Positions 57,187 to 63,885 are shown, numbered from the whole stretch's first letter. The stretch is DNA of 63,885 nucleotides, filler included, from Candidatus Nanoarchaeia archaeon (GCA_035290625.1; 5 parts of 4 records of this genome joined end to end with filler, not necessarily neighbours in it), one strand, 5' to 3'. Numbers and translations are program-made. The notes: generated by a model from the letters alone, not told the origin.

Positions 57187-57438
57187 ATGACTGAAATAAT
57201 TACAATGTCCTCAAAAGGGCAGATCGTGGTTCCAAAGGATTTAAGGAAGCAATTCGGCTTGGATACAGGCACAAACTTTGCAATTTTTGGCAGGGATGAT
57301 ACCCTCATTTTAAAGAAGGTAAGTGTGCCTACAGCAAAGGAAGTCTTTGAGAGAGTGCATAAATGGGGGGCTCAATTAGCCAAGAAAAAAGGATGGAAAG
57401 AAGAAGACTTTACCAAAAAAGCTTCTGAGGGGCACTAA
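57187..57438 (+). CDS. AbrB/MazE-family antitoxin
   Basis: SSKGQIVVPKDLRKQFGL..G. Confidence 0.88.
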   Translation: MTEIITMSSKGQIVVPKDLRKQFGLDTGTNFAIFGRDDTLILKKVSVPTAKEVFERVHKWGAQLAKKKGWKEEDFTKKASEGH

Positions 57439-57441
57439 CAG

Positions 57442-57861
57442 GTGCAAAATCCTATTGTTGTTCTGGATACAAATATTTTTATCTCCTCTATATTCTGGGA
57501 AGGCAGCTCATATAGGATAGTCAGGAAAGCAATAGCCAGGGAGATTATAGTATTCATCTCTGATGAAATCGTAAACGAAATTCGGAGGGTTTTAGCCAGG
57601 GGTTTTTCATTGGCAAAGCAGGAAATTAAGAGTATCATAGACTCGGTGGCGTATTTCACCCATCTTATAAAGCCAAAAGAAAAGGTCGCTGTAGTTAAAG
57701 AAGACCCCGATGATGACAGGATTCTGGAGTGCGCTCTCGCCTGCGGAGCCAAATTCATCATCAGCTACAATAAGCATTTGCTTAAATTAAAGGGATTTAG
57801 AGACATTAAGATAATAACTCCGGAAGAATTCTTAAAAACAGGCAGCTTTCAAGCCGACTAA
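57442..57861 (+). CDS. PIN-domain toxin
   Basis: VVLDTNIFISS, DPDDDRILECA. Confidence 0.88.
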   Translation: MQNPIVVLDTNIFISSIFWEGSSYRIVRKAIAREIIVFISDEIVNEIRRVLARGFSLAKQEIKSIIDSVAYFTHLIKPKEKVAVVKEDPDDDRILECALACGAKFIISYNKHLLKLKGFRDIKIITPEEFLKTGSFQAD

Positions 57862-61550: not shown

Positions 61551-63064
61551 TCCCTAAGCAGATCTTGAATCTTATTAATTTTTCTACGGATTTTGGCAGG
61601 TGTAGCACCATTTGAGGCAGCAACCAACTCCCTATTTGTATACCCCCTTCCATCAGCATACCCATACTTTTGAAAAAACAGGGGAATATAAGACTCAAGG
61701 GTTGGATATTCCTTGAATATCCGAGAGAGCTGATCCTTCATATTGTGCCGGTAGACTTGTTCGGTGGAAGGATACTGAAGCTTATCCCTCATCCTCTTTT
61801 TAATATTTTCTTCAACCTGACGCACACGCTCTCTGGTGACGCCAAACGCATTACCAACATCTTCCAGAATATGGGGGATACCATCTTTGATGCCTGTTCG
61901 CATTTCAAACATCTCTTTATCTCGCGGTGAGACTCGAAGGGTTTTCAAAACCTTTGTTAGTCTCTTTTGTTCTTCAGCCGCCATGGCTGGAACATAAGGC
62001 AACGGAATCTTGGTATCAGCGATAATCTCATGGAAAGTATAAGGGCCATCTTCCGTCAACAGATCATCCAGATGTATCATTCTGTTATGAATATTTAAAT
62101 CATAACCCGAAGAAGTCCTTGCCATGTATTCAACATCACTCCTGATGTGGGACTGATATTTAGGTAATGCAGAGATAATCGCTTGGATGCTGGGCTCTGC
62201 TCCATTCTGCTTTATAAATTCTATGACCCATGCTGCAATAACAGATCTCCGTTCATAGACATGAGCCGGAATCCGAATAGTGGCCCCTTGATTGACAATT
62301 GCTCTTGTTATAGAATAGTTGATCCACCATGTAGCATAGGTGCTTAATTTCGTCTGCCCACTTGTATTCGGATTAAGAGGAGTTGGATTGTACTTTAAGA
62401 TTGCATGTTGCAATCCAAGAACCCCTTCCTGAAAGAGATCCATAGGCTCGAGGCTAGGGCAATTCCTCCAATTTGCCTTTACTTTCCAATAGACGAGCCT
62501 GAAATTGGCCTCTATCAAGTCATCAACAGCACTCTCATCCCCCAGTCTCACTTGCTTCAGCAAAGCCTGCTCTTCCTCGAGGGTAAGCAAAGGCAGTTGG
62601 AAGAGGTAGTTAAGGAATCGCTGCTCAGGACTTATGCCCTTCTCAGGAAAATAAAGATTCTGCTCTCTCCGTATTCTTTCTGAACGTAGCTCCCTTCTTA
62701 GCTTTATGCCTCCATTTTCAATCTTTTTAATTAAAGGTTGGACATCTTGCGGATTAAGTAAGTAAGAATCAGTCATCGTTTCTGGCCTTTGAACAGGCAG
62801 CTCTCCTGCGCGAATAGCATCGTTGATTGCCTCATAAGGAAGCCTAGTCCTTTCCATGGCTTGAGGAATCGTGTAACCCTTAGGCTCAGGTTTTGAGTCT
62901 GGAGTGAGCCGCGTTGAGGCATAGACGGGCTCACAGCCAAGAACGCAAAGCGCGGCATAAACTACTTCCTTAGAAAGACCAGACATATCTGCAAGGATAG
63001 GGACAGGCGTGTCCTTATGGCCTTTAATCAGATTCAATATTTCCAAGGAAAGCCCCTGCACCAT
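61551..63064 (-). CDS. RpoD-like sigma-70 family protein with additional HTH modules (3'-truncated)
   Basis: Region 1.2 YL..LPLLTLEEE; 2.1 LIEANFRLV; 2.2 DLFQEGVLGL; 2.3 STYATWWI; 3.0 TIRIPAH; 4.2 LEDVGNAFGVTRERVRQ. Confidence 0.92.
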
Positions 63065-63087
63065 TCTCAGTAAGAACGTGCAAGCCC

Positions 63088-63116
63088 TATAAAAACATTT
63101 CCGCAATCTATAAATA
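63088..63116. promoter_or_regulatory. Back-to-back archaeal TATA boxes for the sigma-like gene and polX
   Basis: Minus strand GCGGAAATG-TTTTTATA about 23 nt before ATG 63064; plus strand CTATAAATA about 22 nt before ATG 63139. Confidence 0.65.
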
Positions 63117-63138
63117 GCCAGTTCTCCTCAATCGGTGT

Positions 63139-63885
63139 ATGAAGAATGCAGAAATTGCGTCTCTCTTTTATAAGATGGCTGAGTATCTTGAAATAAAAGG
63201 AGAGCAATTCAAGCCACAGGCATACCGCAAGGCAGCAATGACGATTGAGGAATTGGACGAAGACATTGCTGAAATAGCAAAGCAAGGAAAGCTTCAGGAG
63301 CTTCCAGGGATTGGAGAGTCTCTCGCAAAGAAGATTGCTGAGTACATCCAGACAGGAAGAATCCAGGCATTTGAAAGATTACGGAAGGAGCTGCCAATCG
63401 ATATTGAGGCCCTGGAGAAGATAGAGGGCATTGGACCAAAGAAAATCGCTTTTTTGTACAAGAAGTTCGGGGTGAGGAAGCCAGAAGATTTGCAGAGAAT
63501 CATTAAGAGGGGAAAGTTGAAGGGAGTAAAGGGCTTTGGAGAGAAGAGTGAAAAGAAGTTCCTTGAAGGCATCGAGTTCAGCAAGAAGGATGGAAGCAGG
63601 GTGCTTTTGGGAGTGGCATTGCCTGAGGCTGAGGCCATTCAGGAGGTTTTGCGAAAACAACAAGAGGTAAGAAAGGCCGAGATTGCAGGATCTTTAGGGA
63701 GGAAAAAAGAAACCATCGGAGATATTGACATTCTTATCCAAAGCTCTGATGCAGGGAAAACCTTTGATTTTATTTCTCAGCTCGAATCTGTCAGAAGGGT
63801 TTTGGCGAAAGGCGGGACAAAAATATCCGTCATCCTGAAATCAGGGATCCAGGTTGATGTGAGGAATGTTCCTGCTGCTTCATGG
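63139..63885 (+). CDS. polX: DNA polymerase X family (3'-partial; missing from ORF track)
   Basis: MKNAEIASLFYKMAEYLEIKGEQFKPQAYRKAA, HhH LPGIGESLAKKI, IEGIGPKK, AGSLGRKKETIGDIDIL, QVDVR. Confidence 0.93.
   Translation, partial: MKNAEIASLFYKMAEYLEIKGEQFKPQAYRKAAMTIEELDEDIAEIAKQGKLQELPGIGESLAKKIAEYIQTGRIQAFERLRKELPIDIEALEKIEGIGPKKIAFLYKKFGVRKPEDLQRIIKRGKLKGVKGFGEKSEKKFLEGIEFSKKDGSRVLLGVALPEAEAIQEVLRKQQEVRKAEIAGSLGRKKETIGDIDILIQSSDAGKTFDFISQLESVRRVLAKGGTKISVILKSGIQVDVRNVPAASW

Follow-up and report, generated by a model that had tools for sequence, protein, structure and literature searches.

The DNA analysed here (the window, 63,885 bases) consists of contigs of one genome, Candidatus Nanoarchaeia archaeon (GCA_035290625.1; referred to below as G000), chained with N spacers. 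Bases 61551-63885 of the window are the entire contig C70 (2335 b), on which a homolog of the bacterial sigma-70 transcription factors lies divergent to a gene for the DNA polymerase PolX. The genome comprises 1.37 Mb in 84 contigs and is rated 100% complete with 1.14% contamination. The initial annotation had placed the sigma gene at 61551..63064; an intact frame of 504 open codons does occupy this position, but the window lacks part of the gene, as the frame exits at the contig end and the 3' end is lost there. A metagenome contig that is 99.5% identical to C70 (L098) prolongs the frame by 85 codons to about 589. In public groundwater and soil runs (four studies) C70 is present as short, low-depth unitigs, with variant unitigs across the same spans, which explains why the contig is so short. 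The features of the contig are listed in Table 1.

Table 1. Features of contig C70, in window coordinates
Feature	Position	Strand	Basis
Sigma-70 homolog, residues 1-504 of about 589	61552..63064	-	Open frame; RpoS/RpoD E 1e-41; TIGR02937 above cut-off; L098 continuation
Tentative three-helix helix-turn-helix (HTH) module (residues 1-44) in place of region 1.1	62933..63064	-	AlphaFold2, predicted local distance difference test (pLDDT) about 84; helices 7-15, 21-28, 32-41
Putative MerR/excisionase-type winged HTH module (residues 63-123), followed by conserved basic stretch 117-135	62696..62878	-	VIA-align, HTH_17, mad1
Sigma regions 1.2 and 2.1-2.4 (residues 146-262), with DLFQEG, STYATWWI and a 7-residue insert	62279..62629	-	RpoD/RpoS/SigA alignments; dN/dS lower than elsewhere in the protein
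Sigma regions 3.0-3.2 (residues 263-365), including RIPAHVYE and an insert of 13 residues	61970..62278	-	Alignment; NCBIfam alignments span it
Sigma region 4 (residues 366-436), recognition helix TRERVRQVEE	61757..61969	-	Pfam Sigma70_r4, 23.3 bits; most variable between close alleles
Start of C-terminal extension (residues 437-504)	61553..61756	-	Collinear with L098; two further predicted HTH modules in full-length relatives
Divergent promoter region, 74 bp, two TATA boxes	63065..63138		Sequence; genome-wide TATA peak
PolX DNA polymerase, N-terminal 249 residues, cut at contig end	63139..63885	+	NCBIfam PolX E 7e-47; Pfam HHH_8

Judged from its sequence, the gene encodes a divergent homolog of group 1/2-type sigma-70 factors with regions 1.2 to 4.2, in agreement with the assignment first made. 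The protein matches the NCBIfam models for RpoS (TIGR02394) and RpoD_Cterm (TIGR02393) with E-values of 1.4e-41 and 1.5e-41, and its 142.8 and 142.6 bits are far below the curated equivalog cut-offs of these models (378.7 and 354 bits). The cut-off of the sigma-70 superfamily model TIGR02937 (42.9 bits) is passed with 62.9 bits, or 64.3 bits in a search of the genome. Among solved structures, primary sigma factors are nearest (SigA of Thermus aquaticus, E 1.9e-30), together with RpoS (1e-27). Regarding Pfam, this copy scores 23.1 for Sigma70_r2 (PF04542; gathering score 24) and 23.3 for Sigma70_r4 (PF04545; 24.1), and its closest paralog in the genome, on contig C28, exceeds both gathering scores (32.9 for region 2 and 55.9 for region 4). 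No Pfam match to region 3 (PF04539) was found in the C70 copy or in two close paralogs, though the NCBIfam and PDB alignments traverse the region, and there was no match of Sigma70_r1_1 (region 1.1) in the protein.

The motifs on which the assignment had been based (DLxQEG, STYATWWI and TRERVRQ) are present in the translation, as DLFQEG at residues 209-214, STYATWWI at 241-248 and TRERVRQ at 410-416, together with RIPAHVYE at 264-271. Region 1.2, likewise claimed, is tentatively placed at residues 146-186, which align to residues 4-43 of T. aquaticus SigA, weakly when taken alone (9.3 bits); the Pfam r1_2 match in the C28 paralog (E 5.9e-4) is below its cut-off. The protein resembles bacterial SigA/RpoD and RpoS in its apparently collinear regions 1.2, 2, 3 and 4 (31-43% identity) and in the motifs of regions 2.2, 2.3-2.4, 3.0 and 4.2. 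It differs from them in its scores, in the lack of region 1.1, in predicted HTH domains at both ends, in residing in a genome with no bacterial core RNA polymerase, and in two inserts relative to bacterial RpoD, one of 7 residues between regions 2.2 and 2.3 and one of 13 residues ahead of the acidic region 3.2. Residues D209, L210, Q212, E213, G214, S241, T242, Y243, A244 and W247 are invariant in the family of the window gene. Among 43 other archaeal sigma homologs, the core-binding and region 2.3-2.4 residues are kept as D in 40, E in 34, G in 40, Y in 41 and the two W in 32 and 38, and the R-E-R-x-R-Q residues of region 4.2 are kept in 35-37. Position 215 in region 2.2, which we take to be part of the core-binding helix, is N in all of 19 bacterial and in 36 of the 43 other archaeal sigmas, as against V, I, Y or S in this family.

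Region 1.1 is replaced by a stretch for which DNA-binding folds are predicted. A three-helix HTH fold is tentatively proposed for residues 1-44, which VIA-align relates with middling scores (Z 4.8-5.8) to the GcrA DNA-binding domain and to Tc3, Myb and recombinase HTHs. Residues 63-123 superpose with Z 5.8-7.2 and a root-mean-square deviation (rmsd) of about 2 Å over 52-60 residues; most of the 22 top rows are DNA-binding domains of MerR-family proteins or of excisionases, and other small DNA-binding and co-chaperone-binding domains also occur. The fold predicted for this module is thus like that of the MerR/excisionase domains, which differ in that here the module is fused to a sigma core; the similarity in sequence is marginal, Pfam HTH_17 reaching E 0.04 in the C70 sigma and 0.0016 in the paralog on contig C33. 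The PADLOC model mad1 matches this winged HTH module of the C70 sigma with E 8e-6. The N-terminal model has an overall pLDDT of 71, and Foldseek alone gave E > 0.06. At the other end, residues 455-618 of the C28 paralog are modelled with a pLDDT of 89.4 as two HTH modules. Residues 88-163 of this model superpose on sigma region 4 (Z 8.9, rmsd 1.8-3.5 Å, 61-71 residues), so that the last module is predicted to resemble a free-standing region 4 HTH, here attached to a sigma core; the Foldseek E-values for the extension (0.04-0.2) are non-significant. Z values of this size can stem from common helical arrangements. If the models are right, the layout (i.e., two HTH modules, sigma regions 1.2-4.2 and another pair of HTH modules that ends in a sigma-4-like one) is new and characterizes a rare subfamily. 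In L071, from a sister outside the family, a separate 554-residue HTH_17 protein is encoded 2 nt upstream of the sigma gene, an adjacency that hints at a history of fusion.

The 74 bp between the two start codons contain one TATA box for each gene. For the sigma gene it is TTTTTATA (minus strand, 63088-63095), 23 nt ahead of the ATG, and for polX it is TATAAATA (63109-63116), 22 nt ahead of the ATG. TATA-like 8-mers cluster at -32..-29 from the ATG, where 233 of them start in the 1149 predicted genes of G000, and are near zero elsewhere. The spacing of both boxes fits this genome-wide peak, and therefore both genes have the standard archaeal, leaderless-type geometry; the earlier observation of TATA boxes 22-23 nt before both ATGs, as in other genes, is thus borne out in its coordinates. 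The same TATA-to-ATG spacing is seen in the C28 and C33 paralogs once their starts are corrected by alignment, and the polX-side box is conserved with its upstream bases in C28 and in L101, which carries a 46%-identical relative. Pairs of TTGACA and TATAAT (at most one mismatch each), which cover the E. coli-like consensus alone, show no excess in G000 at spacings of 16-18 compared with 8-30, only a 3-base periodicity.

The sigma homolog genuinely belongs to the chromosome of a DPANN-type archaeon, which is probably Woesearchaeota-like to judge by its genome size, its habitat and the literature. Six places in G000 match the sigma protein, namely C70 itself, one on C28 (56%, E 2.6e-170), one on C33 (47%), two in tandem on C31 and one on C9; the superfamily model TIGR02937 finds eight. 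On C28 (34 kb) the paralog is surrounded by OapB, OapC, TrmB, FKBP26, FtsZ and acetyl-CoA synthetase, and on C33 (102 kb) the paralog stands directly after archaeal Nre and before alanyl-tRNA synthetase, with SecDF also in the flanks. C70 aligns without gaps to C28:15221-17479, with identities of about 88% (DNA) and 90% (protein) in polX and about 67% and 55% in the sigma gene. Downstream of the sigma gene, L098 continues with an open reading frame (ORF) of 146 codons that is about 70% identical at the DNA level to the ORF following the C28 paralog, and the metagenome that yielded L098 also contains a contig identical to C28 (L100). Owing to this collinearity and co-occurrence, C70 is a divergent second version of the C28 locus, either from a co-occurring strain or as a second copy in one genome. 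The tetranucleotide profile of C70 correlates with the rest of the genome at r = 0.923; 400 random windows of the same size average 0.818, and 99.75% of them lie below C70.

The initial annotation had cautioned that the contig might be mis-binned, bacterial or phage-derived, or the gene a decaying recent transfer. In favour of mis-binning, the contig is only 2.3 kb long, its PolX is equally near to bacteria of the Candidate Phyla Radiation (CPR; 44-47%) and to order-mates of G000 (44-49%, in 13 of 40) and thus uninformative on taxonomy, and the sigma of one relative (L034), whose genome is 6% contaminated, nests within CPR RpoD sequences. Against it stand the collinearity of C70 on both sides with an archaeal 34-kb contig, the archaeal signature genes around the paralogs on the 34-kb and 102-kb contigs, the archaeal promoter geometry and the genome-like composition. 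Decay is at odds with the intact frames of three paralogs and with a ratio of nonsynonymous to synonymous substitutions (dN/dS) below 1, i.e., 0.32 overall and about 0.15 in sigma-2. Both explanations are therefore largely refuted, and we give them hardly any credence.

The C70 and C28 sigma genes differ with dN 0.34 and dS 1.05, and the low ratio of about 0.15 applies to regions 1.2-2. The corresponding values for PolX are dN 0.05, dS 0.47 and ratio 0.11, so that the sigma protein evolves about six times faster than its neighbour. Selection on the sigma gene is purifying but relaxed. Compared with a near allele (P0003), identity is 95% in the N-terminus, 88% in regions 1.2-2, 73% in region 3, 55% in region 4 and 65% in the C-terminus, and the recognition helix of region 4.2 differs in P0003 and in the C33 paralog. 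Two contigs of one metagenome (L099 and L102) carry a near allele in other surroundings, with Ham1-like and GatC-like genes upstream and HtpX-like and LemA-like genes downstream (assigned by eye); in L102 the N-terminal module meets a stop after 118 codons. A tree was computed by quick search from 69 rows and 340 columns, with 19 bacterial rows (mostly Bacillota and CPR RpoD) and long archaeal branches; one sigma ORF of less than 250 residues and a small ORF resembling the extracytoplasmic function (ECF) type on contig C81 were left out. The window family forms one clade (98), within which the three long G000 paralogs are a lineage-specific expansion (99). A single archaeal clade, for which a sigma phylogeny had been proposed as a check, did not emerge, at least three label changes being forced by starred branches.

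The curated cut-off of TIGR02937 is passed in 102 of the 251 genomes of the order, in 10 bacterial controls and in 0 of 4 archaeal controls. A looser tally of 145 of 251 is inflated, as three of the archaeal controls also match at that E-value. The tallies of sigma and TFE over the 251 genomes take in 7-8 unpublished genomes (G111, G120, G131, G182, G205, G207, G209 and G244), on which nothing else in this account depends. With the window sigma as query, matches were obtained in 17 of 41 genomes. Among 40 loci fetched from relatives, four (L055, L056, L062 and L068), in which no sigma ORF was picked, were dropped and 36 kept; their 239 scanned proteins included 42 sigma ORFs of 192-1741 residues. 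These sigma genes lie amid archaeal housekeeping genes on contigs of up to 1.3 Mb, with neighbours such as L34e, SecY, Rrp41/42, deoxyhypusine synthase, CDC48, RNase P p30, threonyl-tRNA synthetase with the archaeal editing domain, Cbf5, L31e, eIF2-alpha and Spt5. The subfamily with the extra modules is far rarer. Among 5.8 billion clustered proteins only the C70 sigma, P0003 (80% identical to it) and P0004 (about 45%) are close to the C28 paralog; after these close family members the next matches are bacterial RpoD at 38%. When 1.84 billion representatives were searched exhaustively, 50,478 proteins matched at E <= 1e-3, of which only P0004, P0121 and P0122 have an alignment that starts within the first 15 residues. 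Pattern scans, in which absence is not proven, found no relatives of the subfamily among GTDB species representatives or IMG/VR viral contigs.

The presence of a sigma-70 gene in an archaeon is not in itself new. Sigma genes of archaea were reportedly described early on by Rinke et al. in 2013. For DPANN archaea they are already published: Castelle et al. 2021 (PMC8204110) describe sigma-70 class genes (family fam00359) as 'particularly prevalent in Woesearchaeota', rule out mis-binning, report that anti-sigma factors were not found and call the mechanism unclear. The window gene resembles these in being a bacterial-type sigma-70 amid archaeal genes of a small genome and prevalent in its lineage, and its subfamily differs in being rare and in its predicted extra HTH layout. 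The rpoS-like genes of DPANN viruses, reported in a 2025 paper (PMC12647753), are likewise divergent, DPANN-linked sigmas, but the window gene is chromosomal and stands amid housekeeping genes. No publication addressing how archaeal sigma homologs work came up in a literature search. What is new here is the module architecture and the pattern among alleles, not a new kind of system.

In archaea, RNA polymerase initiates with TBP and TFB and not with sigma factors. G000 fits this rule: it has one RNA polymerase large subunit, of archaeal type (1198 bits, above cut-off), and one TBP, one TFB and TFE-alpha. No bacterial core polymerase was found in the genome, where the rpoC model matches only the archaeal large-subunit locus, below its cut-off. 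Sigma-70 factors without region 1.1 can bind promoter DNA by themselves. The reading we favour, with a probability of roughly 0.45, is that the protein acts as an accessory, sequence-specific DNA-binding regulator with several HTHs, on promoter DNA alone, and is not a subunit of the polymerase. The gene is a member of a small family, specific to its lineage, that derives from a bacterial group 1/2 sigma-70. In this family regions 1.2 to 4.2 appear to have been retained, with region 1.1 giving way to two HTH modules and two more being gained behind region 4, the last one sigma-4-like. Transcribed from its archaeal TATA promoter, probably as a leaderless or near-leaderless mRNA, in a cell with archaeal RNA polymerase, TBP, TFB and TFE only, the protein may bind promoter DNA by itself through its string of HTHs. 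Region 4 would carry a specificity that differs among paralogs and alleles, and the divergent polX promoter would be one candidate target. The absence of region 1.1 together with the modelled N-terminal HTHs, the low conservation of region 4 between near alleles and the altered position 215 all favour this reading.

Several observations weigh against it. No DNA target of the protein was found, and for the folds of the extra domains the scores are middling (Z 5-9; Foldseek E > 0.03) and the underlying alignments shallow, with 4-7 rows. D-L-x-Q-E-G and the Y and W of region 2.3-2.4 are kept throughout the family and in most other archaeal sigmas; a pure binder of double-stranded DNA would not obviously need these residues, and their retention fits continued contact with RNA polymerase or with single-stranded DNA. 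The coiled coil of the Rpo1N clamp is invariant across 23 genomes of the order, and therefore a docking surface exists. These two points speak instead for a hybrid initiation or clamp factor, in which sigma domain 2 would dock on this coiled coil (the surface used by TFE and Spt4/5) and either assist in opening or selecting certain promoters or compete with TFE and Spt4/5. The wide occurrence of the gene family in the order also supports such a role, as does a sigma gene in another genome (L058:6019-7459, G191) that is codirectional with spt5 (NGN-KOW) and located 41 nt downstream of it. Against clamp docking, the coiled coil is the same whether or not the genome has a sigma match and so gives no indication of co-adaptation, the family has an altered position 215, the promoter pairs of TTGACA-N16-18-TATAAT are not in excess, and TFE is present in 236 of 251 genomes. 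A predicted complex of Rpo1N residues 31-436 (23 rows) with sigma residues 146-300 (45 rows) scored 0.00 without controls and carries no weight either way. On balance we regard a clamp-docking factor as possible but rather unlikely. Its more specific form, in which a sigma-derived protein grips the universally conserved coiled coil of the archaeal clamp and opens or selects a promoter subset (e.g., repair genes such as polX) by means of the melting residues and the extra HTHs, is doubtful; if true, it would amount to a working bacterial/archaeal initiation hybrid in one cell. A replacement of TFE by the sigma protein was considered and rejected, as TFE-alpha is above cut-off in those 236 genomes, G000 included. 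The sigma-spt5 pair of L058 follows FtsZ and FKBP26, both of which are also found near the C28 paralog.

A regulator of, or participant in, DNA repair, which would control or work with the neighbouring polX, nre, ogt and mutS-like genes, is suggested by the fact that every sigma locus of G000 has such a neighbour: PolX is divergent on C70 and C28, Nre lies directly upstream on C33, an MGMT domain is encoded two ORFs from the C31 pair, and AP_endonuc_2 and MutS-like proteins surround the C9 copy. The divergent sigma-polX pair is kept in L101, and the order MGMT-sigma-sigma recurs in G167 (L064:5664-7694), a relative from another family. However, the observation was made post hoc, the L102 allele has the Ham1-like and GatC-like genes in place of polX upstream, and only 3 of the 36 loci of relatives have a clear repair gene within three ORFs (MutL, MGMT, Vsr), with 2-3 more being ambiguous. 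This role is accordingly improbable in our view. A general association of sigma and repair genes was not borne out among the loci of relatives and was discarded.

Strain-level variability, a divergence far above that of the neighbouring polX, the different flanks in another metagenome (L099/L102) and the rpoS-like genes described for DPANN viruses (PMC12647753) could also mean that the gene is part of a mobile element, a virus or a defence system resident in the archaeal chromosome. For defence, a close known system is MZA, whose anti-phage sigma-70 fusion MzaA (NF041931) is also a long protein with a C-terminal sigma core and matches with E 9e-41 and 4.5e-26. This match is limited to the sigma part (profile positions 422-705 of 726) and reaches 140.4 bits against a cut-off of 800, and no model of the Mza partner genes matched among the 19 proteins of the G000 sigma loci. 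The flanks examined contain no integrase, capsid or other mobile-element genes, no relative was seen in the pattern scan of IMG/VR, and the composition is typical of the genome, all of which makes this origin very unlikely. A defence system was rejected, as the matches are confined to the sigma part of MzaA and to the small HTH model mad1.

An effector directed at a bacterial RNA polymerase, in a partner or in a competitor, could make use of the complete bacterial sigma core that is retained. The organism shares groundwater with CPR bacteria, and DPANN archaea are thought to be symbionts (Castelle et al. 2021, PMC8204110). On the other hand, neither a signal peptide nor a secretion-linked neighbour was seen, no host is known, and the predicted extra HTH modules and several paralogs per genome better match an internal regulator. 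We hold an effector to be highly improbable, and the internal, DNA-binding regulator remains the reading we prefer.

Further sigma loci and neighbouring genes were noted in passing. The tandem genes on C31 (L020:7166-11091) have 447 and 455 codons and lie two ORFs from the gene with the O6-methylguanine-DNA methyltransferase domain. On C9 (L021:2780-8736) a 529-codon sigma gene stands between a 664-codon protein with the AP_endonuc_2 domain and the genes for a DOT1-like methyltransferase and a MutS-like ATPase, the last two giving weak PADLOC matches to mad2 (E 8e-8) and mad8 (E 5e-6). The small ECF-like ORF on C81 (18984-19439; open frame of 196 codons, 60.5 bits to TIGR02937) may be contamination. 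In other genomes, a 1741-codon ORF terminates in a full sigma-70 core (L036:1516-6741, G112), and four tandem sigma genes are found beside exosome and deoxyhypusine synthase genes (L037:5061-10196, G039). The sigma of L034 (G014:C67, a 6.6-kb contig) has regions 1.1 to 4 and falls inside CPR (Patescibacteria) RpoD with full support, which points to a recent transfer or to mis-binning. G000 has two PolX proteins, the truncated one of the window and one at C28:16733-18436, which are 90% identical, and within the order the distribution of PolX is patchy (14 of 41 genomes). Elsewhere in the window (57187-57861), two small adjoining ORFs of 83 and 139 codons resemble, by eye, an AbrB/MazE-type antitoxin and a PIN-domain toxin.

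In textbooks, sigma factors on the one side and TBP/TFB on the other mark the divide between bacterial and archaeal transcription. The locus offers the sequence of the whole protein, three paralogs within G000, near alleles whose differences lie mainly in region 4 and a candidate target region of 74 bp that the sigma gene shares with polX. Sigma genes that are kept, duplicated and diversified under selection in such an archaeon would mean either that an initiation factor of bacteria can find a second use on an archaeal polymerase, or that the sigma scaffold may serve as a ready-made DNA binder with multiple HTHs.

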